Positions 1 to 59,551 of a stretch of DNA of 64,000 nucleotides are shown one piece after another. This DNA is from Shigella phage B2. The notes below the pieces were generated by a model. It made no database searches. It was not told the origin of the DNA and worked only from the letters and a program-made list of their open reading frames with translations. The translations under genes and the position numbers were made by a program. The stretch's first letter is position 1. Each line of letters opens with the position of its first letter. The stretch lies in the sequence record OM858838; one strand, 5' to 3'.

Positions 1-1017
1 ATGCGTCCTTCAGCTATTAAAAAAGCTATTGAAAGAGCTTTTGCGGCAGGACTAGTTCCTTTTATTAAAGGTAGTCCGGGTATTGGTAAGTCTGCAATCA
101 TTCGCCAGATTGCTAAAGAAGCGAAGTTATGGGTTATTGACCTTCGTTTAGGTCAGTGTGACCCAACTGACTTGCTGGGCTTTCCAAATATTGAGAATGG
201 ACGTTCGGTGTATCATCCTCCGAAAGACATTCCAATTGTCGGGGATGCAGTCCCTGAAGGGTATAACGGCTGGTTACTGTTCCTCGATGAGATGAACACT
301 GCACCCAAAGCCGTACAAGCTGCTGCATACAAACTGTTGGATGGTATGGTTGGTCAAACCAAACTCCATCCTCAAGTGTATATTGCTGCGGCTGGTAACA
401 AAGATACAGATGGTGCAATCACTACCACAATGAGTAGTGCAACCCTGTCTCGTATTGTTTCTATGGAGTTAGAAGTTAACTTCGATGATTGGTCTGTTTG
501 GGCGATAGCCGAAAAAATAGACCATCGTATCTTAAGTTTCTTAAACTTTAAGAAAGAACTCTTTCATAAGTTTGACCCAAAGAACTTAAGAGAAACATTC
601 CCTTGTCCTCGTACATGGGACTTCACTAACCGAGCTATTAATGGTTTGGAAGTGGATATCAAAACTGATTTAGGCTTATTGTCAGGTGTAATCGGTAGAG
701 GTGCTGCTCGTGAATTCATCGAGTACTGCGCTATCTATGGAGACGTTTCTTCTATTGAAGAGATTCTGGCTAATCCAGAAGGTATCGTCATCAAAGACCG
801 TCCTGATATTAAGTTTGCTTACGCTGGTTATGCAGCATCTTCTATCACCGTAGAAAATGCTCCTCAATTGATGAAGTTCATCAATCGTCTGCCAGTAGAA
901 TTCCAAATTGTTGCATTGAGCAATGCGTTTAAAGCCAAACCAATGATTTCAGCAGTTCCTGAAGTTATGGATTGGGTTACTCGCTATGCCAATGATTCCG
1001 GTGAAGGAATGCTCTAA
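1..1017 (+). CDS. MoxR-like AAA+ ATPase (ORF begins at window edge, 5' end may be truncated)
   Basis: Walker A GSPGIGKS and Walker B LLFLDEMN; followed directly by a VWA-domain partner as in MoxR-VWA pairs. Confidence 0.75.
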   Translation: MRPSAIKKAIERAFAAGLVPFIKGSPGIGKSAIIRQIAKEAKLWVIDLRLGQCDPTDLLGFPNIENGRSVYHPPKDIPIVGDAVPEGYNGWLLFLDEMNTAPKAVQAAAYKLLDGMVGQTKLHPQVYIAAAGNKDTDGAITTTMSSATLSRIVSMELEVNFDDWSVWAIAEKIDHRILSFLNFKKELFHKFDPKNLRETFPCPRTWDFTNRAINGLEVDIKTDLGLLSGVIGRGAAREFIEYCAIYGDVSSIEEILANPEGIVIKDRPDIKFAYAGYAASSITVENAPQLMKFINRLPVEFQIVALSNAFKAKPMISAVPEVMDWVTRYANDSGEGML

Positions 1018-1027
1018 GGAGGTTCCT

Positions 1028-2128
1028 TTGGATAAAGACAAGGCATTAGATTTAGCTAAAGTAGATTTGTTTGCTAAGAGTAAGAATGCTTTTATCTGTT
1101 CTATCTTTTGTTCACTTCAACTTAAGTGGGACGATACCATTCCTACAGCTTGTACGGATGGTTTAAACATTCTGATAAATCCAAAGTATTTTATGGATTT
1201 ACCCCGTCCTTGTAGAGTGACACTCCTCGCTCATGAGACGTGGCATGTTGCTTTAAAACATGTCTTAAGACTTGCAGCAAGAAATCCTGAGTTATGGAAT
1301 TGGGCCTGTGATTTCTATATCAATAATATGCTGGATAGCTCTGGCTATGTAATTGGTATTGGTTGGCTCTTAGACCATCAATATGATGATTTAAGTGCTC
1401 CTCAAATCTATGACAAATTACTTCAGCAAGGCAGTAAACAACAACAGAACTCTTTAGGCATGGACATTAAACCATGTTCAATGGCTGATGAGGAAGAAGT
1501 TGAAGTACAGATTGACTCTATGTTGATTCGTGGCTCTATAGCTGCACAACAAAGTGGTCAGGCTGGGTCAATACCAGGGGAAATTCAGGCTTATATAGAT
1601 GAACTTCTTAACCCTAAACTACCGTGGAATGACATTCTCAGAAACTTTGTTAATGAGATGACTCGCAATGATTACACTTGGGCTAAGCCTAATAAGCGAT
1701 ATCTGCCTGATGTATATCTACCTTCACTAAACTCCGAAGGACTGGAACATATCATTTTTTATACTGATATATCCTGTTCTGTAACTGATGCACAGTTTGC
1801 TGTGTATATCAGCGAGATTCATGCAATTAAAACAACTCTGAATCCTAAACGAATTACTGTATGTACATTCGATACAAGGATTCATGATATTCATGAGTTA
1901 GAAGAAGGTGACAACATTGCTGATTGTAACTTCACTGGTAGAGGGGGAACATCTCTCAAGTGTGTTTATGAACATGCTAAGAAAGAGAAGCCTGAATTGA
2001 TTGTTGTATTCTCGGATTTGGAATGTCCTCCAATGAACGAACCACCAGCACCTAATATTATTTGGGTATGTCTGGATAATCCAAGTGCAACAGTTAACTT
2101 CGGGCAACTGATTCACGTAAACAGTTAA
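1028..2128 (+). CDS. VWA-domain protein with N-terminal HExxH metallopeptidase-like region (MoxR partner)
   Basis: HETWH motif near N-terminus; DISCS (DxSxS MIDAS-like) motif; SD AGGAGG 5 nt upstream of in-frame TTG at 1028 (alternative ATG at 986 overlaps upstream gene). Confidence 0.7.
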   Translation: MDKDKALDLAKVDLFAKSKNAFICSIFCSLQLKWDDTIPTACTDGLNILINPKYFMDLPRPCRVTLLAHETWHVALKHVLRLAARNPELWNWACDFYINNMLDSSGYVIGIGWLLDHQYDDLSAPQIYDKLLQQGSKQQQNSLGMDIKPCSMADEEEVEVQIDSMLIRGSIAAQQSGQAGSIPGEIQAYIDELLNPKLPWNDILRNFVNEMTRNDYTWAKPNKRYLPDVYLPSLNSEGLEHIIFYTDISCSVTDAQFAVYISEIHAIKTTLNPKRITVCTFDTRIHDIHELEEGDNIADCNFTGRGGTSLKCVYEHAKKEKPELIVVFSDLECPPMNEPPAPNIIWVCLDNPSATVNFGQLIHVNS

Positions 2129-2178
2129 ATATATCTACGTGGCTAGGTAAACAATTTGCTTACCTTTCAGATGTTTTT

Positions 2179-2205
2179 GCCCTCCTTGTGAGGGCATCTT
2201 TTTTG
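2179..2205 (+). terminator. intrinsic terminator (GC stem gccctc/gagggc plus T-run)
   Basis: inverted repeat followed by TTTTTT immediately after stop of the VWA gene. Confidence 0.6.
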
Positions 2206-2213
2206 GAGCTTAT

Positions 2214-2471
2214 ATGGGTTTATATCTGTATTGCCAAAATACCGAATGTGGTCAGTACGTTGATGGTATGGACTGTCAATGTTGTGGATGGACTCAACCA
2301 TTACCTGAGCCAGAATTCGAATTACCTGAAGACTTAAAACAAGCCTTACAGGATGCGTTAGATTTTGTAGGTCATGATTGTCGTTTTGACCATCATGGTT
2401 ATTGCCAAGAACATGGACTTCAAGAAGAAGACTCCTGCTTCGCAGGTGTATTCCGAAAATATTTGGAGTAA
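2214..2471 (+). CDS. small Cys-rich (zinc-ribbon-like) protein
   Basis: GGAG SD; CxxxxC...CxCC and C..H..H..C patterns in an 85-aa ORF. Confidence 0.5.
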   Translation: MGLYLYCQNTECGQYVDGMDCQCCGWTQPLPEPEFELPEDLKQALQDALDFVGHDCRFDHHGYCQEHGLQEEDSCFAGVFRKYLE

Positions 2472-2474
2472 ATC

Positions 2475-2879
2475 ATGTTCAAGATTCGGAAAGCTATACG
2501 TGATGTAGCGAACGCTAAGTACCCTAGAAAGCTCTCAATGAGTTTGGCTAGTAATATGCCCCTGTCTAATCATCGATGCCATTACAACGCTGTACAGGCT
2601 GTCAAAAATGATATGGCTGTAGGCGTGATAGAAGTAGTCATTATTTATGATGACACTTGTAGTGTTCACTTCGTGAATCTCATGGCTGATGGCTCAGTAG
2701 TTGATTACACATTGGGATTGATGTGCATTGACGATGATTATCGTTTTGTACGTCATGTATCTCCTAATGAGTATGACTCCATTAATCGTGCTCTGATGGA
2801 TGCTAAGCATAAGCTTCATGCTGAAACTCCTTGGCATATCAGAAAGTTAATTAAACTGTCCAAACAGGACTGGTGTTAA
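2475..2879 (+). CDS. hypothetical protein
   Basis: GGAG SD 6 nt upstream; tightly packed in operon. Confidence 0.5.
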   Translation: MFKIRKAIRDVANAKYPRKLSMSLASNMPLSNHRCHYNAVQAVKNDMAVGVIEVVIIYDDTCSVHFVNLMADGSVVDYTLGLMCIDDDYRFVRHVSPNEYDSINRALMDAKHKLHAETPWHIRKLIKLSKQDWC

Positions 2880-3694
2880 CCATGAAAGAGCAAGAACAAC
2901 TCAGGAAAGATATTTCCCGTATCTTTTCTATCTTTAAAGCCAGTGAATGTGAGTTACGTCCTCATTTTATTCTGACTGGCGAAAGTGGTACTGGAAAAAC
3001 CTTTTTAATTAAGTCTCTGGCTGACCAGCATAAGATGGATTACATCGAAATTAATGCTGCTCAGTTAACCAAAGAAGGCTTATCGGGTAATAGCTTAAGT
3101 AAGGCATTAGCTCCTCTTCGCCAAGCCAATGGTAATCCTGTCATCTGCTTTGTAGATGAATTCGATAAGTTATTTATCGCGGGTAACAACAATAGTGAAT
3201 TGGCTCATGAGTCTACTAATGGAGTTCAGAATGAATTCCTTAAGATTCTTGAATCTGATTGTACTTCGGTATTTGGCGACTATGGCAAGTATGTAGACGT
3301 TCCTGTTAGTAACGTTCTATTCGTATTTGCTGGAGCATTTAATGGAGAACCAGATATCACTCTGGATAAACTCCGTACCTTTGGTGTTAAGACTGAATTC
3401 TTAGGTCGTGTTGGTTTGGTATACAACACAGTGAAAGTCAGTCTGGAAACACTAATCAAAATCCTGAAAGACTCCAAAACTCTCGCTATGTATCTGGACT
3501 TGTTTCCAGAGGTTAAGCGCGAGAAAGCTGTTTCAGATATCTCTGCATTTATCAGAGATAACTATGAAATGAACACTCTGGGTATTCGTATGGTTAATAC
3601 GTTAATTACTCAGTACTTCATTCAAGATGGCAAACTTACCCGTGAAGAAGTTAAGTCTAGTACTTTCCAAAATAAACTTAAATTTGGTGAGTAG
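2873..3694 (+). CDS. ClpX/HslU-like AAA+ ATPase lacking the N-terminal zinc domain
   Basis: Walker A GESGTGKT, Walker B ICFVDEFDK; overall resemblance to the ClpX ATPase core (…AAQLTKEGLSGNSL…, …GVQNEFLKILES). Confidence 0.65.
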   Translation: MLTMKEQEQLRKDISRIFSIFKASECELRPHFILTGESGTGKTFLIKSLADQHKMDYIEINAAQLTKEGLSGNSLSKALAPLRQANGNPVICFVDEFDKLFIAGNNNSELAHESTNGVQNEFLKILESDCTSVFGDYGKYVDVPVSNVLFVFAGAFNGEPDITLDKLRTFGVKTEFLGRVGLVYNTVKVSLETLIKILKDSKTLAMYLDLFPEVKREKAVSDISAFIRDNYEMNTLGIRMVNTLITQYFIQDGKLTREEVKSSTFQNKLKFGE

Positions 3695-3695
3695 T

Positions 3696-3830
3696 ATGTC
3701 TAAACATCCTATCGCTTGGGATATCTTTCGTATCCCTGCAAAACTCGTCTGTCGAACCAAGAAGAACCATGTAGCCAATATTGCTCGTAGCAATGGCTTC
3801 AGAGTGATTCCTGTGTTCGGTAGAGGTTAA
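3696..3830 (+). CDS. small hypothetical protein (44 aa)
   Basis: short ORF with ATG 2 nt after upstream stop; weak. Confidence 0.3.
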   Translation: MSKHPIAWDIFRIPAKLVCRTKKNHVANIARSNGFRVIPVFGRG

Positions 3831-3853
3831 AGCCCCTTCGGGGCTTGCTTTGG
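3831..3853 (+). promoter_or_regulatory. TTC-triloop hairpin (agcccc-TTC-ggggct) followed by TGCTTTGG; candidate hairpin promoter or processing site
   Basis: 6-bp perfect stem, 3-nt loop, no T-run; same architecture recurs at 6112 and 52104. Confidence 0.4.
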
Positions 3854-3928
3854 AAAAAAGAAAGAGGAATTCATCCTCTTCAAATCAAACTGTAATTTTT
3901 AATCCCAATCTGAAAAGGTAAAAAAGAA

Positions 3929-5371
3929 ATGGCTAAGACTCTTGAGCAAGATGAAAAGAAAGTACACGTTGCTGAAATCGTTCGTCACGGCGAAAAACTG
4001 ATTGTGCCGGAAGGCATGTCTCTGAGCGATGTTATCGACCTCGCTAAACGTCGCATGAAGTTCGAAGAAGAAGAAGTTCTGGTACGTCGTACCTATAACG
4101 TATTCCCATGGGATGGTGCTCATGCTCTGATGCTGGCACTGACCGAACGTTATGGCTGGGCTGCTGCTGAAGCAACTCCTGGTTTCTTCGGCTCCAATCC
4201 TCCGCAAATGCTGGATGTGCAGGTCGGCTATGGCAAAACCAAAAAAGTTCCATGGGGACGTTTCTCTCTGCCACAGGTAGATGGTTTTGTTCAGTGTTCT
4301 GCACAGAAGAAAGATGGTCGTATCAGCTTCGAACTGGTCGGTAAAGTCCTGCGTAAAGACGAAAAGACTATCGAACTGCTGTTTGATACCGTTGAGCAAA
4401 CTCTGCGTACCAACTCCATTTACATGGGTCAGGCTATCAAAATCCGTTTCCGCGATAACGATGGCGACCTGCTGGAAATGCCGGAACCAGAATTCATGGA
4501 CCTGCGTGGTATCAGCCGTGATTCTCTGGTTTATTCTGACGATGTTCAGAACCTGATTGAAACCAACCTGTTTACGCCGATTGAGCGTGTTGCTGACTGT
4601 ATCGCTAACGATATGCCGGTTAAACGTGGCGTTCTGCTGGGTGGACCATACGGTACTGGTAAAACTATGGCTGCAACTGTTGCTGCTGCTCTGGCTACCA
4701 ACGTGGGTGTTACCTACGTATACGTACCGCGTTCTGATGAACTGTCTGATGCAATTCAGTTTGCTAAGCAGTACAGCGATAAAGCCTGCGTAATCTTCTG
4801 TGAAGATATCGACCGTGCCGTATCCGGTGAACGTAGCGTGAAGATGGACGATATCCTGAACATTCTGGATGGTATCGACACCAAAACTTCTCGCATCATC
4901 ACCGTTCTGACCACCAACCATCTGGAAAACATCAACCCAGCAATGCTGCGTCCGGGCCGTCTGGATGCAATCATCGATGTTACTGCGCCTGATGCGAAAG
5001 CTGTTGAAAAACTGGTTCGCCTGTATGGTCGTGACACCATCGCTGCTGATGCAGACCTGACTCTGGTCGGTGAAGCTCTGGCTGGTACTATTCCTGCGGT
5101 AATCGCGGAAGTTGTTAAGCGTGCGAAACTGCACCAGCTTCAGTATCAAGAAGCAGGTACTCTGATTGAAGAAATCAGCGGTCAAGCTCTGCTGGATTCC
5201 GCTCTGACTATTCAGGCACAGCGTAAGCTGCTGGAAGAACAGTCCAAGCCGAAAGTTAAAGAACCAACCTTCAACGAAACTATCGCTGCTGCTGTTGCTC
5301 CGGCAATTGCTGAAGCTGTAGGTAAAGTTGCTGGTCAGGTTTCTGAACTGCACGAACGTATCGTCGGCTAA
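3929..5371 (+). CDS. classic-clade AAA+ ATPase, codon-optimised (highly expressed)
   Basis: Walker A GGPYGTGKT, Walker B VIFCEDID, second region of homology with RPGRLD; strong host-like optimal codon usage (CTG, CGT, GGT, AAA) distinct from neighbours. Confidence 0.85.
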   Translation: MAKTLEQDEKKVHVAEIVRHGEKLIVPEGMSLSDVIDLAKRRMKFEEEEVLVRRTYNVFPWDGAHALMLALTERYGWAAAEATPGFFGSNPPQMLDVQVGYGKTKKVPWGRFSLPQVDGFVQCSAQKKDGRISFELVGKVLRKDEKTIELLFDTVEQTLRTNSIYMGQAIKIRFRDNDGDLLEMPEPEFMDLRGISRDSLVYSDDVQNLIETNLFTPIERVADCIANDMPVKRGVLLGGPYGTGKTMAATVAAALATNVGVTYVYVPRSDELSDAIQFAKQYSDKACVIFCEDIDRAVSGERSVKMDDILNILDGIDTKTSRIITVLTTNHLENINPAMLRPGRLDAIIDVTAPDAKAVEKLVRLYGRDTIAADADLTLVGEALAGTIPAVIAEVVKRAKLHQLQYQEAGTLIEEISGQALLDSALTIQAQRKLLEEQSKPKVKEPTFNETIAAAVAPAIAEAVGKVAGQVSELHERIVG

Positions 5372-5434
5372 CCGCCAGTAGTACTTGGATAGCCCTTCAA
5401 TGAGGGGCTATTCCAGTTATCACTGGAGGTAATC

Positions 5435-6112
5435 ATGAAGAATCTTTACCAGAAGATTGATGGAAGCCAATACAACCGAATCTTCGTTGTAGGAGATTTA
5501 CATGGTTGCTTTGATGAATTCCAAAAAGAGATGTGGGCTGTTCAGTTTAATGCTGAAACAGACTTAATCATCTCTGTAGGTGATTTAATTGACCGTGGTT
5601 CACAGAATGTGAATTGCTTACGTCTGTTAAATGAACCTTGGTTTAAAGCTGTTCTGGGTAATCATGAAGTAATGGCACTCAATGCCTTATCTTCTGAACC
5701 TTCTTCTGAAGAAGGGGATTTAGCATATTACAATTGGTTCCGTAATGGAGGCATTTGGATTATGGATATTCCTGAAGAACAGAAACCAGAAGTATTAGAA
5801 TTATTTACTCAGGTAGCAGAACTGCCTGGTATCATTGAAGTCTCAGTAGGTGACAAGACTATTGTTATCTGCCATGCAGACTACCCTTCAAATCAGTATC
5901 AATTCGATAAACCAGTTGATGAGGAAACTCTTATCTGGGGTAGAGAGCGTATAGCTCAAAACCAAAATGGAGAAGGTACTGTCATTCAAGGTGCTGACGA
6001 ATTCTACTTCGGTCACACACCTGCCAAAGACCCTATGCAATTTCATAACCAACATTACATTGATACCGGAGCAGTATTCGGTGGTCGATTAACATTGGTT
6101 CAAATCAAATAA
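5435..6112 (+). CDS. PPP-family Ser/Thr protein phosphatase (metallophosphoesterase)
   Basis: GDLHG, GDLIDRG and GNHE signature motifs in canonical order; GGAGG SD. Confidence 0.85.
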   Translation: MKNLYQKIDGSQYNRIFVVGDLHGCFDEFQKEMWAVQFNAETDLIISVGDLIDRGSQNVNCLRLLNEPWFKAVLGNHEVMALNALSSEPSSEEGDLAYYNWFRNGGIWIMDIPEEQKPEVLELFTQVAELPGIIEVSVGDKTIVICHADYPSNQYQFDKPVDEETLIWGRERIAQNQNGEGTVIQGADEFYFGHTPAKDPMQFHNQHYIDTGAVFGGRLTLVQIK

Positions 6113-6134
6113 CTGCCTTCGGCAGTTGCTTTGG
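6112..6134 (+). promoter_or_regulatory. TTC-triloop hairpin (actgcc-TTC-ggcagt) followed by TGCTTTGG
   Basis: 6-bp stem, 3-nt loop, overlaps stop codon of phosphatase gene; identical downstream octamer to hairpin at 3831. Confidence 0.4.
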
Positions 6135-8466: not shown

Positions 8467-8711
8467 TGGATATCGCATTTGTAGTATCAAAAGTAATTGT
8501 TACAGAGTACACACTGCTTAGGCAGTGGTGGCCTGAACAGTTACGCGAGTCTAGATATGTCGATACAGATATGACTAGAACCTACTTCTTAGATAGACTT
8601 CCCTCTCCTGAATTGTATGAGCTTATGGATAGGCTTAATGCAGAAGGAAGAACCTATCGATTTATGGACTTAAGAGGAGTGGACTCAGAAGATGCGTCAC
8701 ATAATCTTTGA
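8466..8711 (+). CDS. hypothetical protein
   Basis: ORF with ATG overlapping upstream stop. Confidence 0.45.
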   Translation: MDIAFVVSKVIVTEYTLLRQWWPEQLRESRYVDTDMTRTYFLDRLPSPELYELMDRLNAEGRTYRFMDLRGVDSEDASHNL

Positions 8712-10347
8712 ACAGAACCAAAGATATCCAATAGCAATTCTCATCAAACCACAGCAACTAAAGAAGCGTGAGTTACAGGAAGCGTATATCGACCCTACTG
8801 GAATCAAGCCAAAGCAATTCATTGCATTTGACCTTGAGTACAATGGTAAGAAAGCTCCTGTATCTATGCAGAAAGACTATCTTAAAGACCTGTTACCAGA
8901 GCTATGCAACTTAAGAACAGAGTATGTTCTATGTTGCGATAGTGCTTACTTCAAGACTCTAACCAAGCAAACCAAAGCAGAACCTCATTATGGTTATGTA
9001 TTGCCTTGTGCTATTGCTGGTTTCGAGCACTTGAATATTATCTTTTGTCCTAACTATGCTCAGATTTTCTATGACCCATCAGTTCAGGATAAAGTCGATT
9101 TAGCACTTAAAGCATTGGTAGATAAAGTGAATGGGCAATACCAAGAGATTGGTAAGGATATTATTCATTCTGCTTATTACCCTTCAACAGTTGAAGACAT
9201 TGAAGCTTGGCTTGAATCTCTTCATCAATATCCAGTATTGGCGTCAGATATTGAGGCATTTAGCCTCAAATTCTATACAGCAGGTGTAGGTACTATTGGT
9301 TTTGCATGGGACCAACACAATGGAGGAGCATTCGCTGTTGATTACACGAATGAACCAGACAAGGCTAATAGGATAAGGCAGGCTCTTAAGAAGTTCTTTG
9401 AAACTTATAAAGGCAAACTGATTTGGCATAACGCTAGTTATGACTTAACAGTGCTTATCCATCAGCTTTGGATGAAAGGTCTAATAGACCAGAAAGGACT
9501 GCTTAAGGGGTTGCATATTATGTGTCGTGATTTTCACGATACTAAGATTGTAACTTATCTGGCTACAAACTCTTGTGCAGGTAATGAATTGGGACTGAAA
9601 GCTCAGGCTCATGAATTTGCTGGCAACTATGCACAAGAAGATATTAATGACATTACTAAGATTCCTCTTCCAGAGTTACTGGAATACAACTTAGTTGACT
9701 GTTTAAGCACTTGGTATGTTGCAGACAAACATGCAGATACTATGGTGCTGGATGAACAGTGGGAAATCTATAATGACCTAATGTTACCTTCGCTGAAGAA
9801 TATTATTCAGATGCAATTAACTGGTATGCCTATTGATATGGCAGAAGTTAAGAAGGTTAAAATAGAGATGACTAAAGAGCGTGATGGATATCTCAATGCT
9901 ATCCGTTCATTTGCTGTAGTAGATTTACTAGTTCATAACTTGCGTGAACAACATGTAGCTACTCGTAATGCTGCCCTTAAAACCAAGCAAATTACAATGT
10001 CTGATGATGAGACATTAAAAATAGAGTTTAATCCAAACTCTAACCCTCAGATGCAAGAACTCTTGTATGAGATTATGGGATTACCTGTAATCGATTATAC
10101 CGAATCTAAACAACCTGCTACTGGAGCAGATACTTTAGATAAGTTAATTAACCATACAACAGATGACCGTCAGAAAAAGATACTCGAATGCCTTATTAAG
10201 TATTCTAAGGTAGAGAAGATTTTATCTGCATTCATCCCTGCATTTGAAGAAGCACCTTTAGCCGAAGATGGTAACTACTATCTGTTCGGTAGCTATAACT
10301 TAGGTGGTACTGTATCCGGTCGTTTGAGTTCATCAAAGCCTAAATAA
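8692..10347 (+). CDS. DNA polymerase I family, N-terminal part (3'-5' exonuclease and palm start), ends inside the conserved GRLSS..PN.QNIP motif
   Basis: exonuclease-like DIEAFSLKFY region; C-terminus …TVSGRLSSSKPK matches the first half of the Pol I motif …TGRLSS.DPNLQNIP. Confidence 0.85.
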   Translation: MRHIIFEQNQRYPIAILIKPQQLKKRELQEAYIDPTGIKPKQFIAFDLEYNGKKAPVSMQKDYLKDLLPELCNLRTEYVLCCDSAYFKTLTKQTKAEPHYGYVLPCAIAGFEHLNIIFCPNYAQIFYDPSVQDKVDLALKALVDKVNGQYQEIGKDIIHSAYYPSTVEDIEAWLESLHQYPVLASDIEAFSLKFYTAGVGTIGFAWDQHNGGAFAVDYTNEPDKANRIRQALKKFFETYKGKLIWHNASYDLTVLIHQLWMKGLIDQKGLLKGLHIMCRDFHDTKIVTYLATNSCAGNELGLKAQAHEFAGNYAQEDINDITKIPLPELLEYNLVDCLSTWYVADKHADTMVLDEQWEIYNDLMLPSLKNIIQMQLTGMPIDMAEVKKVKIEMTKERDGYLNAIRSFAVVDLLVHNLREQHVATRNAALKTKQITMSDDETLKIEFNPNSNPQMQELLYEIMGLPVIDYTESKQPATGADTLDKLINHTTDDRQKKILECLIKYSKVEKILSAFIPAFEEAPLAEDGNYYLFGSYNLGGTVSGRLSSSKPK

Positions 10348-11053
10348 ATTGGGCTGTTTAAACTTCGTGAATTCGGGGAAAATCCAGAACGGACAATCCC
10401 GAGCCAAGTCAACCAATCATGTCTTAAGAGGCAGAATGGACACTAAAAAATTAGAATATTTATATGAAAACACTTCTTTATCTCAGAAAGAGATTGCTAA
10501 GTGTTTAGGATTAAAATCTGCTAGGGCTGTTCAAAAATATTGTTACAGACACTATACAAGTGCCTATCGTAAAGAAAGGCATTCCAAGCTATTAGCTAAA
10601 GCTAAACTAGGAAGTTTAAACCCTATGTTTGGTAAATCTGGTTTATACCACCCCAGATATCTAGGAGTTGTCTCTGACAACAAAGGGTATTGGATGGTAT
10701 TAAAACCAGAGTGGTATACAGGGCGTAAAAGCAGTAAGCATGTATTTTTACATTCTGTAGTTGTATGTGAACATCTAGGATGGACAGAAATACCGAAAGG
10801 GTATGTAGTTCATCATTGTGATTTTGACCCATCAAATAATGATTTTGATAATTTAGTGGTGCTTACTGTAGCAGAACATATGAGCTTACATGCAGCATTG
10901 AAAGGTGTAACGACTATCTCGAAAGAGAGTACACTCAAGTGGGTGGAAGCGCGAAGGGCTGGTAACAGCCATGATATAGTCTGACCTGTATAGGAATATA
11001 CAGCAGCACTGAATAGTGCGAGTACAGCTTAACGAACTGTACTGAACGTAGTG
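10342..11053 (+). mobile_element. candidate group I intron carrying an HNH homing endonuclease ORF, inserted in the DNA polymerase gene
   Basis: insertion splits a single ultra-conserved motif; proposed 5' exon ends in T (10341), insertion ends in G (11053); joining 10341 to 11054 is in frame and restores SKPNMQQIP. Confidence 0.5.
10436..10984 (+). CDS. HNH homing endonuclease
   Basis: VVHHCDFDPSNNDFDNLVVLTVAEHMSLH HNH motif; GAGG SD before ATG 10436 (track ORF starts further upstream at non-ATG 10349). Confidence 0.8.
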   Translation: MDTKKLEYLYENTSLSQKEIAKCLGLKSARAVQKYCYRHYTSAYRKERHSKLLAKAKLGSLNPMFGKSGLYHPRYLGVVSDNKGYWMVLKPEWYTGRKSSKHVFLHSVVVCEHLGWTEIPKGYVVHHCDFDPSNNDFDNLVVLTVAEHMSLHAALKGVTTISKESTLKWVEARRAGNSHDIV

Positions 11054-11995
11054 AATATGCAACAAATCCCATCCTCTAAGAGTCCTTATGCCAAGCCTAT
11101 TAAGCGATGCTTTAAAGCTGGTAAAGGTTGGCTTCTTATTGGGTTAGACTTTGCATCTCTAGAGGACCGTATTTCAGCTCTGACAACCAAAGACCCCAAT
11201 AAACTTAAAGTTTATACTGATGGGTATGATGGTCATTCTCTCAGAGCATTCGCTTACTTTGGCGACCAAATGCCTGATATTCAGAATACAGTGGATAGTA
11301 TTAATAGTATTCAGGACTTATATAAGGACTTTAGACAAGAATCTAAAGCTCCTACTTTTGCACTTACCTATCAAGGTACTTATCACACATTGATGGCTAA
11401 CTGTGGCTTCCCAGAAGACAAAGCGAAAATGGTTGAAAAGAGGTATCACGAACTCTATTTCGTCTCTGACCAATGGGTAGACGCCAAGTTAGCACAAGCC
11501 AGCAAAGATGGTTATATCACTGCTGCATTCGGATTAAGAATCCGTACTCCATTACTCAAAAATGTTGTCTGGGGAATTAAACAAACACCATATGAAGCCA
11601 AAGCAGAAGGCAGAACTGCTGGTAATGCTTTAGGTCAGTCTTGGTGCTTGTTAAATAACCGAGCAGCAAATGAGTTTATGGAACGTGTATGGAATTCTCC
11701 TTATGCAGATGTAATCAAACCATGCGCTCAAATTCATGATGCTCAGTATTATCTGGTTCCAGATGATATTGATATTGTTCATTGGGTTAATGAGAACTTA
11801 GTTGAGTGTGTTCAATGGCAAGACCATCCCGATATCTATCACGAGGAAGTGAAGTTAGGAGGAGATTTAAGTGTCTTTTACCCATCATGGGCTAATGATA
11901 TCTCCTTAAAGAATGGAGCTTCTAGAGAAGAAATCTTAGATACATGTGAAGTTGGATTGGATAAGTATCTTCACCCGGAGAAATATAAAAAATGA
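11051..11995 (+). CDS. DNA polymerase I family, C-terminal part (fingers/palm with motifs A and C)
   Basis: begins NMQQIP (second half of the split motif), DFASLEDR motif-A-like, QIHDAQYY motif-C-like. Confidence 0.85.
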   Translation: MNMQQIPSSKSPYAKPIKRCFKAGKGWLLIGLDFASLEDRISALTTKDPNKLKVYTDGYDGHSLRAFAYFGDQMPDIQNTVDSINSIQDLYKDFRQESKAPTFALTYQGTYHTLMANCGFPEDKAKMVEKRYHELYFVSDQWVDAKLAQASKDGYITAAFGLRIRTPLLKNVVWGIKQTPYEAKAEGRTAGNALGQSWCLLNNRAANEFMERVWNSPYADVIKPCAQIHDAQYYLVPDDIDIVHWVNENLVECVQWQDHPDIYHEEVKLGGDLSVFYPSWANDISLKNGASREEILDTCEVGLDKYLHPEKYKK

Positions 11996-52103: not shown

Positions 52104-52126
52104 AGCACCTTCGGTGCTCTCTTTGG
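52104..52126 (+). promoter_or_regulatory. TTC-triloop hairpin (agcacc-TTC-ggtgct) followed by CTCTTTGG, upstream of tRNA cluster
   Basis: 6-bp stem, 3-nt loop; third copy of hairpin plus TTTGG architecture. Confidence 0.4.
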
Positions 52127-52134
52127 AAAGTTTT

Positions 52135-52209
52135 GGTTCTATGGTCCAGTGGAAAGGATATTCCCCTGTCACGGGAAAGGCCCGAGTTCAATTCTCGGTA
52201 GAACCGCCA
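52135..52209 (+). tRNA. tRNA-Asp (anticodon GTC), CCA encoded
   Basis: hand-folded cloverleaf: acceptor ggttcta/tagaacc, anticodon loop CTGTCAC, T-arm ccgag-TTCAATT-ctcgg. Confidence 0.8.
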
Positions 52210-52213
52210 ATTA

Positions 52214-52288
52214 CAGGATATAGCTCAAGTTGGTTAGAGCACTCGGCTCATAACCGAGAGTGTCCAGGTTCGAAACCGGGTGGAACCA
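52214..52288 (+). tRNA. tRNA-like, anticodon CAT (Met or Ile2); acceptor stem does not pair by hand-folding, possible pseudo-tRNA
   Basis: canonical D-arm tagctcaagttggttagagca and anticodon arm ctcgg-CTCATAA-ccgag, T-loop TTCGAAA. Confidence 0.4.
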
Positions 52289-52298
52289 CCAAATAATG

Positions 52299-52383
52299 AA
52301 GAGAGTCGTATAGCGGCCCAATACGCCACCCGAACGTTACGACTAGTACGGAGAACACGCAGGTTCGAATCCTGCCTCTCTTC
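52299..52383 (+). tRNA. type II tRNA-like element, anticodon unresolved
   Basis: acceptor aagagag/ctctctt, perfect T-arm gcagg-TTCGAAT-cctgc, 85 nt; anticodon arm not foldable by eye. Confidence 0.35.
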
Positions 52384-52389
52384 ACAAAT

Positions 52390-52463
52390 TGTCTCATAGC
52401 TCAGTAGGTCAGAGCGTTCCCCTGATAAGGGAAAGGTCACTAGTTCGATTCCAATTGAGACAA
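52390..52463 (+). tRNA. tRNA-Ile (anticodon GAT)
   Basis: acceptor tgtctca/tgagaca, D-arm, anticodon loop CTGATAA; T-stem has two mismatches. Confidence 0.55.
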
Positions 52464-52605
52464 CCATCCAATAGATTACAGTTCGTATCTCTTAGGGGAA
52501 TACACTTGTAATTGCGGCCCGATAGGAAAGGGTAATTTCTCGACGATGGGAGTAGACCATTGACTGTTTGGAATAGACAACTGACGCTGTGAACGAGAAC
52601 AGGAA

Positions 52606-52692
52606 CAAGATGAGTCGTATAATAGGCAAATACAATATTCATGTTTCGCTATAGGCATGGAGAAGGAACGTGAGTTCGAGTCTCACCTCATC
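52606..52692 (+). tRNA. type II tRNA-like element, anticodon unresolved (paralogue of 52299 element)
   Basis: acceptor agatgag/ctcatca, T-arm gtgag-TTCGAGT-ctcac; shares 5' tcgtat…atac D-arm with 52299 element. Confidence 0.35.
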
Positions 52693-52794
52693 AATAGTTC
52701 TTATCAGGGATTACTTACTACTATATATCATACATTACCTCGCCTGGTGTGTTGGTGTTACCTCGGTAGATAAGTAATCCACTAATAAGAATTT

Positions 52795-52880
52795 GGAAGA
52801 TTCCGCTCAGTGGTGGGCAATCCGGTTTGAACCCGGAGGTGCTGGTAACGGTAGGGGTTCGACTCCTCAATCTTCCGCCA
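52795..52880 (+). tRNA. tRNA-Ser (anticodon TGA), type II, CCA encoded
   Basis: acceptor ggaagat/atcttcc, anticodon arm tccgg-TTTGAAC-ccgga, long variable arm, T-loop TTCGACT. Confidence 0.75.
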
Positions 52881-52886
52881 ATATTT

Positions 52887-52962
52887 GATAGGATAGCTAA
52901 CTCGGTAAAGCGGCAGACTGTTAATCTGCGACATTAGGGTTCAAATCCCTATCCCATCGCCA
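52887..52962 (+). tRNA. tRNA-Asn (anticodon GTT), CCA encoded
   Basis: anticodon arm gcaga-CTGTTAA-tctgc, T-arm taggg-TTCAAAT-cccta. Confidence 0.8.
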
Positions 52963-53127
52963 AACTTGCAGGTAACTCTGCAATCCGTGACCAGTCGGTA
53001 TGTTTATTAGTATGTAAAAGGCTGGGCTTCCTGCCTCTCATAGCCATACTCTTAAATGAATAACTGGTAGTCCAGCCAAGCGCACGAAGATGGGGACCCT
53101 CACCATCGGACAAAACGAGGGTACTAA

Positions 53128-53204
53128 GCATCCTTAGCTCAGTTGGATAGAGCAGTAGCCTTCTAAGCTATTGGTCACTGGTTCGAATCCAGTAGGGTGT
53201 ACCA
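53128..53204 (+). tRNA. tRNA-Arg (anticodon TCT), CCA encoded
   Basis: D-arm gctcagttggatagagc, anticodon loop CTTCTAA, T-arm actgg-TTCGAAT-ccagt. Confidence 0.8.
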
Positions 53205-53205
53205 A

Positions 53206-53281
53206 GCTCACTAAGTTCATATGGGTGAACGCCTGCCTTGTAAGCAGGATGAACGCGGTTCGATTCCGTGGGTGAGCACCA
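53206..53281 (+). tRNA. tRNA-Thr (anticodon TGT), CCA encoded
   Basis: acceptor gctcact/ggtgagc, anticodon arm cctgc-CTTGTAA-gcagg, T-loop TTCGATT. Confidence 0.8.
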
Positions 53282-53283
53282 AT

Positions 53284-53369
53284 GGGAGTATGGTGAAATC
53301 GGTAGACACAAGGGATTTAAAATCCCTCGGCTTATAGCTGTACGAGTTCGAGTCTCGTTACTCCCACCA
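53284..53369 (+). tRNA. tRNA-Leu (anticodon TAA), type II, CCA encoded
   Basis: acceptor gggagta/tactccc, anticodon arm aggga-TTTAAAA-tccct, long variable arm, T-arm acgag-TTCGAGT-ctcgt. Confidence 0.75.
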
Positions 53370-59483: not shown

Positions 59484-59551
59484 CACCGTCTTCGACGGTG
59501 GTGGAGTTCTCCCTTAAGTTCTCCTTCTCCTGTAAGAGCGACTTCGTCGCT
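59484..59551 (+). promoter_or_regulatory. tandem pair of TTC-triloop hairpins (caccgtc-TTC-gacggtg at 59484-59500; agcgac-TTC-gtcgct at 59537-59551), each followed by GTGGA
   Basis: 7-bp and 6-bp perfect stems with 3-nt loops, 36 nt apart, upstream of codon-optimised gene at 59593. Confidence 0.45.

Follow-up and report, generated by a model that had tools for sequence, protein, structure and literature searches.

All three of the ATPase classes considered here have already been recognized in phages, either as core genes of N4-like phages or in a 2021 survey of jumbo phages. In that survey, jumbo phages were found to encode a MoxR AAA+ ATPase together with a vWA co-chaperone that has a metallopeptidase fused to its N-terminus, a pair proposed to act in virion assembly and proteolytic processing, with the way the tail develops in Acidianus two-tailed virus cited as the precedent for a MoxR-VWA pair, and each of the three jumbo-phage groups was reported to have “BCS1 orthologues” (Iyer et al., 2021, PMC7824862). 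In N4-like phages, gp24 and gp25 are core genes without known function, gp25 being noted only for its “vWFA domain” (PMC4193335, PMC7650795). Both belong to the 14 core genes that came out of a comparison of 25 N4-like genomes, and a literature search covering N4 gp24/gp25 function, essentiality screens and transcriptomes found no functional data on them. This analysis concerns the first 5.4 kb of a stretch of 64,000 nucleotides from Shigella phage B2 (sequence record OM858838; the whole stretch is referred to as the window), in which genes for a gp24-like MoxR-type ATPase, a small ClpX-like ATPase (mini-ClpX) and a 480-aa classical AAA+ protein lie close together on one strand.

Over bases 1–5500, the window shares 99.6% identity with Salmonella phage vB_SenP_UTK0001 and 98.8% with FSL SP-058; the two are N4-like podoviruses (Schitoviridae, Humphriesvirinae, Ithacavirus). 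The 5.4-kb stretch sits in the one-strand early/middle gene block of these phages, with genes for a NinI-like phosphatase, a RecD-like helicase and DNA polymerase further downstream. An initial annotation, made from the letters alone, had interpreted the three ATPases, a VWA protein and a Cys-rich protein as one dedicated, operon-expressed unfoldase system. Every open reading frame (ORF) that it named is present (1–1017, 986/1028–2128, 2214–2471, 2873/2882–3694 and 3929–5371), and two further ORFs that it missed were found at 2475–2879 (134 aa) and 3696–3830 (44 aa). Because the same block was recovered in nine related genomes, its ORFs are conserved genes and not chance. Profile and homology searches upheld the family-level calls (MoxR-like, HExxH plus VWA, ClpX-like core without the zinc domain, classical-clade AAA+), and the general idea of protein-remodelling or chaperone ATPases with an unassigned role is likewise supported. 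The organization proposed for them is not: the block probably consists of three independent AAA+ chaperone-type cassettes that stand side by side, not of one machine. Its features are as follows.

1..1017, plus strand: gp24-like MoxR/AAA_5-type ATPase, 338 aa (Pfam AAA_5, phrog_1297)
1028..2128, plus strand: gp25-like HExxH and VWA protein (Pfam DUF2201_N and DUF2201)
2169..2199, plus strand: intrinsic-terminator-like hairpin, a 12-pair stem followed by TTTTTT (terminator scan, fold)
2214..2471, plus strand: 85-aa Cys/His-rich accessory ORF (phrog_28967)
2475..2879, plus strand: 134-aa ORF (phrog_6596)
2882..3694, plus strand: mini-ClpX, an AAA+ ATPase of the ClpX/HslU clade by sequence, 270 aa (ClpX profile and PDB matches, family alignment)
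3696..3830, plus strand: 44-aa ORF (annotated coding sequence in UTK0001)
3830..3846, plus strand: G+C-rich hairpin with a 7-bp stem and TTC triloop (hairpin scan, minimum-free-energy fold, terminator scan)
3861–3881, plus strand: second hairpin, downstream of the TTC-triloop hairpin (hairpin and terminator scans)
3929..5371, plus strand: 480-aa probable Bcs1/YjoB-like classical AAA+ protein (Pfam AAA, motifs, AlphaFold2 model, Foldseek)
5385..5416, plus strand: imperfect G+C-rich hairpin after the 480-aa gene, AAU triloop (fold; within a longer structure, 5372–5429)

Transcription signals divide the block into at least three units, which speaks against a single operon. The gp24-gp25 unit is closed by the hairpin and T-run at 2169–2199, and hairpins flank the 480-aa gene: AAGCCCC-TTC-GGGGCTT at 3830–3846, directly after the 44-aa ORF, and the hairpin at 5385–5416, which has its AAU triloop in the minimum-free-energy fold (-31.4 kcal/mol). 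The 480-aa gene had indeed been described as bracketed by triloop hairpins. In the curated record of Klebsiella phage Pylas, terminators are annotated at two equivalent places, one corresponding to 2169–2199 and the other to the hairpin after the 480-aa gene.

The phyletic patterns of the genes are independent as well, and they do not fit a dedicated system. Neither gp24 nor mini-ClpX occurs within 10 kb of the 480-aa gene in 39 of 53 loci from IMG/VR, while among 80 IMG/VR loci with mini-ClpX, gp24 is found within 8 kb in 21 and not in the other 59, and the 480-aa gene in only six. In N4-type Enquatrovirus, gp24 and gp25 are the only genes of the block in this region. Erwinia relatives carry a different order (mini-ClpX, five genes, the 480-aa gene, gp24, gp25), and two relatives (L006 and L009) lack exactly mini-ClpX and the Cys-rich ORF; L009, at 71.4 kb, is a near-isogenic natural variant in which the gp24, gp25 and 480-aa genes are 95–99% identical to those of the window. 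Mini-ClpX is dispensable in nature, as predicted from the natural variant IMGVR_UViG_3300021357_000002. Clustering of ORFs by BLASTP, which would miss distant partners and to that extent weakens the case for independence, found no conserved neighbor of the 480-aa gene across the 53 loci and none of mini-ClpX across the 80; synteny was lineage-specific only.

A single operon-expressed unfoldase system for protein remodelling or host takeover, made up of the three ATPases together with the VWA and Cys-rich proteins, is, on this evidence, very unlikely. The arrangement of all the genes on one strand within 5.4 kb speaks for it, as do the retention of the set in Ithacavirus, Pollockvirus and Pylasvirus and the proximity of the three ATPases in Erwinia Johnsonvirus. 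Nearly all non-structural genes of N4-like phages, however, occupy the same strand and region, so the proximity of the ATPase genes carries little weight. The separate transcription units, the independent distribution, the other gene order in Erwinia phages and the natural variant without mini-ClpX and the Cys-rich ORF all count against it, as does the absence of canonical threading pore loops from two of the three ATPases. The label “unfoldase-type” is not supported for these two: mini-ClpX is without the GYVG, RKH and IGF loops, and the 480-aa protein lacks a pore-1 loop and carries the “ED” Walker B of Bcs1 and YjoB, proteins that act on folded proteins (PMC9565160, PMC7994207).

Some observations weigh against three wholly independent cassettes. 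All three ATPase genes lie within 8 kb of one another in two subfamilies of Schitoviridae, and in many other N4-like contigs gp24 is immediately preceded by mini-ClpX, an arrangement that also favors the single-system view. A functional link inside N4-like phages, or a lineage-specific link between mini-ClpX and gp24, is therefore a possibility. L127, L132, L138 and further N4-like contigs from IMG/VR show the arrangement mini-ClpX, gp24, gp25, RecD-like helicase, with mini-ClpX ending <100 nt before gp24, an order unlike that of the window. What was observed directly comprises the family identities and motifs, the transcription signals, the phyletic independence, and the codon bias and conservation; for the oligomeric state, the chamber, the substrates, the timing and the expression level of the products, which the cassette interpretation also draws upon, we infer what is proposed below.

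The first cassette corresponds closely to described pairs. ORF 1–1017 matches Pfam AAA_5 at 27.4 bits (cutoff 22; E-value 3.8e-6) and phrog_1297 (E-value 2e-119), its sole PDB sequence match is the AAA module of midasin, and Walker A (GSPGIGKS) and Walker B (LFLDE) motifs can be read from the translation. ORF 1028–2128 matches DUF2201_N (E-value 4e-43, 148.3 bits) and the VWA-like domain DUF2201 (E-value 2e-25, 89.8 bits). Its N-terminal part, a zincin- or metallopeptidase-like domain, contains an HExxH motif (HETWH), and its C-terminal VWA-like domain contains a complete MIDAS (DISCS...GGT...D). In an alignment of six homologs that spans N4-like phages, jumbo phage GAP32 and cyanophage S-TIM66, at identities down to 21%, residues H69, E70, H73 and H78, D247, S249 and S251, G306, G307 and T308, and D330 are invariant, and this invariance of the HExxH(+H) and MIDAS residues argues that both sites are functionally required. 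For the VWA gene, the start at 1028 given by the initial annotation is a better choice than the annotated ATG at 986. The TTG at 1028 follows a perfect Shine-Dalgarno sequence (AAGGAGG, 1016–1022) that overlaps the gp24 stop codon, an overlap that indicates translational coupling of gp25.

Homologs of the pair are widespread. A tblastn search found homologs of the gp24-like ATPase in 804 phage records; for the VWA protein, the number was 587. Homologs in N4-type (Enquatrovirinae) coliphages are 37–41% identical to the genes of the window; Enquatrovirus Jura has its own copies, annotated gp24 and gp25, and the ATPase and VWA genes are neighbors in Jura, in the 359-kb myovirus GAP32 and in S-TIM66. 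The pair resembles that of group 2.2 jumbo phages, in which an AAA_5-type ATPase is followed by a VWA/MIDAS protein with an N-terminal HExxH, and gp24 and gp25 of the window have no structural feature that departs from the N4 and jumbo-phage pairs. Cellular MoxR-VWA pairs include RavA-ViaA, CbbQ-CbbO and NorQ-NorD; these, like p618/p892 of Acidianus two-tailed virus, are without the peptidase domain that is present in gp25 of the window. Judged by domains and motifs, gp24-gp25 is an unremarkable representative of the core cassette known in Schitoviridae.

By analogy with MoxR-VWA pairs, a target (a single protein or a complex) would be tethered to the ring of the ATPase by the VWA/MIDAS domain of gp25, remodelled through ATP hydrolysis and cleaved by the HExxH domain. 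Very different phages may have this maturation or assembly step in common. For gp24 and gp25, the translational coupling and the invariant sites of the peptidase and MIDAS motifs offer clear mutational targets. In S-TIM66 (1954–4589), a gene for Hsp20 lies immediately upstream of the MoxR-like ATPase and DUF2201-type VWA genes, which hints at a chaperone context for the pair. The annotation of Pylas (3947–5816) shows the gp24-like ATPase gene interrupted by an intron with a gene for an HNH homing endonuclease. Homologs of gp25 are widely labelled “HNH endonuclease” (phrog_1314, RefSeq), a label that nothing tested here supports.

Three small ORFs occupy the spaces between the cassettes. The 85-aa ORF contains the Cys pattern CX4C-X8-CXCC and a second Cys/His cluster; it has no Pfam match and matches only phrog_28967, a family of unknown function, and nothing tested supports the labels “zinc ribbon” or ATPase partner that have been given to it. 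It is found in some relatives only, being absent from L003, L005, L006 and L009. The idea that it represents a detached zinc domain of ClpX was rejected: the ClpX zinc domain has the Cys pattern CxxC...CxxC, the Cys spacing of the ORF differs from this, and relatives L003 and L005 carry mini-ClpX without the Cys-rich ORF. The 134-aa ORF at 2475–2879 belongs to phrog_6596, has no significant Pfam match and is kept in relatives that lack mini-ClpX. The 44-aa ORF at 3696–3830 has no family match in Pfam or PHROG searches, and its product is 70–100% identical among nine relatives.

Translation of the second ATPase more likely begins at the ATG at 2882 than at the GTG at 2873 that opens the mechanical ORF. 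ORF 2882–3694 is nearest to ClpX, which supplies its best PDB matches, and then to HslU, at scores far below those that define these proteins: 67.5 bits against the NCBIfam ClpX model NF003745 (cutoff 359), 58.7 against TIGR00382 (cutoff 370.75) and 39 against the HslU equivalog (cutoff 362). With ClpX and HslU it shares the Walker A and B motifs, a GVQ..LLK motif, the box VII Arg (EF[IL]GR, here EFLGRVG) and the sensor-2 Arg. Unlike ClpX, it has no N-terminal zinc-binding domain, as it begins ~30 residues before Walker A and aligns from about residue 113 of ClpX, and it has neither GYVG nor the RKH and IGF loops in a length of only ~270 aa. Where ClpX has GYVG at pore-1, the protein reads GLSG, and 21 family members read G[T/L/V/I][S/A]G, without the aromatic residue. 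Profile alignment to solved ClpX structures places a six-residue deletion at the RKH loop, and ~23–32 residues of ClpX, located between two aligned segments, have no counterpart; from its position in E. coli ClpX, we take this missing stretch to be the IGF (ClpP-docking) loop region.

The family defined by this protein comprises >2000 clusters at 90% identity, almost all of them ~270 aa long, whose members are 60–65% identical across very different phages. In siphovirus-type contigs, the gene stands beside Sak4-like recombination genes. The most invariant part of the protein is the loop region NAAQLTKEG.SGNSLSKAL, and an invariant channel loop of this kind suggests binding of one specific conserved ligand. 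By its sequence, mini-ClpX is an ATPase of the ClpX/HslU clade but not a ClpX, and by every known criterion of sequence it cannot be a subunit of a Clp protease. The features that couple ClpX to adaptors, to ClpP and to the gripping of polypeptides have all been lost, and the protein may act as a stand-alone ring ATPase on one conserved ligand through its invariant, non-aromatic channel loop. The database label “CLP protease” on its homologs appears to be an over-annotation or error, and these results are a caution against annotating such genes as “Clp protease”.

The closest described relatives in architecture of the third ATPase are Bcs1, which translocates folded proteins in mitochondria, and YjoB of Bacillus subtilis. 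YjoB forms a soluble “bucket-hat” hexamer and needs the chamber inside it for its substrate-specific activity as a chaperone, the two proteins have N-domains of one fold, and an “ED” Walker B is an exceptional feature common to both (PMC9565160). Bcs1 is without the substrate-contacting pore loop of hand-over-hand threading (PMC7994207). In ORF 3929–5371, Pfam finds only an AAA domain (PF00004, residues 235–351). This domain is classical, with NPAMLRPGRLD in the second region of homology, and by sequence it is nearest to p97/Cdc48. Its Walker A is GPYGTGKT and its Walker B FCEDID; among 130 family representatives with Walker A, Walker B carries “ED” in 108 and “DE” in none, and the spacing between Walker A and Walker B in the family is 43 aa. 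Alignment with p97 D1/D2 leaves a gap of 7–9 residues exactly at the pore-1 loop, and in the AlphaFold2 model (mean predicted local distance difference test score, pLDDT, 80.7) strand 262–266 is predicted to pass into helix 269–280 through a two-residue link.

The layout of the protein consists of an alpha/beta N-domain (about residues 1–205) that belongs to no Pfam family, the AAA domain and C-terminal long helices. The N-domain defines a large group of 1101 clusters at 50% identity, nearly all of which combine it with one AAA domain and some of which have N-terminal extensions. The best full-length Foldseek matches of the predicted structure are Bcs1 and YjoB, over 422–449 columns that take in both domains. 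No transmembrane segment was found, and the hydrophilic N-terminus (MAKTLEQDEKKVHVAEIVRHGEK) is modelled as disordered. Likeness to Bcs1 and YjoB thus lies in a single classical AAA domain that follows an alpha/beta N-domain of ~150–200 aa, in the “ED” Walker B and in the missing pore-1 loop. The 480-aa protein is like YjoB and unlike Bcs1 in being predicted to be soluble, without a transmembrane anchor, and it differs from both in its extra C-terminal long helices, its virus-specific family and its very high codon optimization. It probably belongs with the Bcs1/YjoB class and works in a similar way, as a soluble version. One family member, P0263, contains an intein with an HNH domain in the P-loop region; selfish elements such as this intein and the HNH intron in Pylas gp24 commonly target conserved, important genes.

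Several results count against placing the protein with Bcs1 and YjoB. The TM-scores of the Foldseek matches are modest (0.45–0.53), and the E-value for Bcs1 is only ~100-fold better than that for p97. In sequence searches with the AAA domain, p97/Cdc48 and the proteasomal ATPases outrank Bcs1 and YjoB, and in a search of PDB sequences with the family profile, p97-type proteins fill the list and neither Bcs1 nor YjoB is among the top 60, so that a placement with these two is not obtained from sequence alone. No sequence similarity to BCS1_N could be detected in the N-domain, which on its own gives weak, generic fold matches. Jumbo-size contigs carry members of the 480-aa family, possibly the same family as the jumbo-phage “BCS1 orthologues”. 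An identity as FtsH was rejected: in addition to the missing transmembrane segment, no M41 peptidase domain is found by Pfam, and the FtsH model TIGR01241 scores 53.6 bits against a cutoff of 600. The names “cell division protein FtsH”, “metalloprotease” and “proteasome subunit” on database homologs appear to be errors.

The 480-aa gene had been called the most codon-optimized of its region, which proved an understatement. Its codon adaptation index (CAI), computed with weights after the Sharp-Li E. coli table, is 0.669, the highest among the 58 ORFs that reach 80 aa or more anywhere in the 64 kb, and compares with 0.553 for a capsid-like gene and 0.481 for a gene whose product resembles a single-stranded DNA-binding protein (SSB). 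The weights are a reservation about this result; the raw codon counts do not depend on them. Leu is encoded by CTG in 93% of cases and Arg by CGT in 85%, and TTA, AGA, TCA, ACA and ATA do not occur at all. The bias extends to the family: scores could be computed for 52 of the 53 IMG/VR loci, and here the 480-aa homolog has the highest CAI among its neighbors 31 times and one of the two highest 43 times, and its G+C content at third codon positions lies above the locus median in all 52, whatever the G+C content of the host. On the minus strand, a 484-aa open frame (3899–5353) spans nearly the whole gene. It arises because the sense gene has no TTA, CTA or TCA codons, and is a shadow of codon bias and not a gene. 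Seven tRNA genes are located at 52135–53369 (Asp-GTC, Ile-GAT, Ser-TGA, Asn-GTT, Arg-TCT, Thr-TGT and Leu-TAA); four of the seven tRNAs read TCA, AGA, ACA and TTA, codons that are common in most phage genes and absent from the 480-aa gene.

Conservation of the gene is equally pronounced. Compared with Erwinia phage Frozen, which belongs to another subfamily, the 480-aa protein is 65.1% identical, a polymerase fragment 65.2% and the terminase 62.5%, ahead of the capsid (56.4%) and portal (53.8%) proteins and of mini-ClpX (45.9%), gp24 (37.9%) and gp25 (36.4%). The family is spread over some Schitoviridae, KPP25-like podoviruses, PhiW-14, Gordonia siphoviruses and Mycobacterium prophages. On a ~100-kb Salmonella replicon with Rep3-type and phage-type replication genes, a homolog follows an HU-like gene. 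A scan of 185,579 species genomes with strict peptide patterns gave five convincing matches, all of them in contigs of metagenome-assembled genomes (MAGs). In Gordonia phage Fryberger (L057, 4887–6368), a ~32%-identical homolog lies in opposite orientation to the flanking structural genes and is located, together with two small ORFs, between the genes for the tail assembly chaperone and the tape measure protein. In a lambdoid prophage from an enterobacterial MAG (L144, 7001–8455), a 68%-identical homolog is found downstream of cI on the same strand, which is the rex/early-left position, typical of exclusion and host-interaction accessory genes.

A distribution of this kind raises the alternative that the 480-aa protein is the product of an accessory conflict gene, acting in anti-defence, superinfection exclusion or host shut-off by stoichiometric neutralization of an abundant, conserved host protein. 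Its patchy, mobile-accessory spread over unrelated phages, the rex/early-left position in the lambdoid prophage and the reversed insertion in Fryberger are what such a gene would show, and very high predicted expression and conservation across hosts would suit titration of a conserved host machine. PADLOC models for IetA also match the protein (E-value 1e-13). These matches, however, are weaker than those to generic AAA families, and no IetS-like protease is encoded nearby in the window. Conflict genes are usually fast-evolving, whereas the 480-aa gene is as conserved as those for polymerase and terminase, and the nearest structural class, Bcs1/YjoB, consists of chaperones or translocases. Overall, we regard a conflict role as unlikely. 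Membership in the IetAS defence system in particular was considered and set aside, as PADLOC gave generic AAA matches and no protease gene is adjacent.

Taken together, strong constraint, mobility and a high predicted abundance point to a self-contained device that acts on an abundant, conserved client of host or phage. Under the Bcs1/YjoB-type interpretation, the N-domain ring and the AAA ring would enclose a chamber, and this chamber would bind folded or near-native proteins, making the protein an ATP-gated holdase or chaperone that does no threading; from codon usage, its product is predicted to be the most abundant of the phage. In its fullest form, the proposal is that the 480-aa proteins constitute a large virus-specific family (at least 1,100 clusters at 50% identity) of soluble, chambered Bcs1/YjoB-class chaperones, which are made at or above the level of capsid protein and enclose either a folded, abundant and conserved host protein or a major phage protein. 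We offer this tentatively, as a conjecture more apt to fail than to hold in all its parts.

A further possibility, also doubtful, is that all three ATPases act in virion morphogenesis, as proposed for jumbo phages: the MoxR-vWA-peptidase pair would process structural proteins, the BCS1-like protein would move folded proteins into the head, and the ClpX-like protein would aid assembly. Apart from the published proposal with its precedent in Acidianus two-tailed virus (PMC7824862), the small heat-shock gene next to the pair in S-TIM66 is in its favor, and codon optimization of the 480-aa gene at the level of capsid genes fits a chaperone for an abundant structural substrate. The genes lie, however, among middle genes for replication and nucleotide metabolism, with the late structural block on the other strand. 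Similar virions are made where the 480-aa gene or mini-ClpX is missing, by N4 itself and by those N4-like contigs of the sample that lack the gene in question, and the hydrophilic N-terminus of the 480-aa protein provides no membrane anchor.

Outside the block, the hairpin structures and the polymerase gene also deserve mention. Further G+C-rich hairpins with TTC triloops occur at 6111–6127, where the hairpin overlaps the stop codon of the phosphatase gene, and at 52104–52118, 59484–59500 and 59537–59551. Perfect hairpins with a stem of at least 6 bp and a 3-nt loop number 48 in the window, compared with ~20 in shuffled sequence. The recurrent triloop hairpins may be terminators, RNA-stability elements or hairpin promoters of the N4 type. 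The DNA polymerase gene is split into 8692–10347 and 11051–11995, both of which match the single polymerase of Erwinia phage Frozen. Between the two halves lies an ORF for a 211-aa HNH_3 endonuclease (10349–10984), which suggests an intron or other homing-endonuclease insertion, and in Pylas the polymerase coding sequence is likewise annotated as joined.

With the ATPase classes themselves already described, what is new here is the evidence that an “FtsH-like” gene encodes a probable soluble protein of Bcs1/YjoB type, together with its extreme codon optimization and conservation, the systematic loss of ClpX coupling features in mini-ClpX, and the invariant sites and translational coupling of gp24/gp25. 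The locus illustrates that a dense cluster of similar-looking ATPases can come from juxtaposition in an accessory region and not from a shared system. For the 480-aa protein, a soluble Bcs1/YjoB-type identity shifts the sensible experiments toward a chamber and a folded client and away from degradation. If the tentative proposal for its family is true, these proteins would be a general phage device for chaperoning or sequestration, comparable in importance to the phage homologs of GroES/GroEL.

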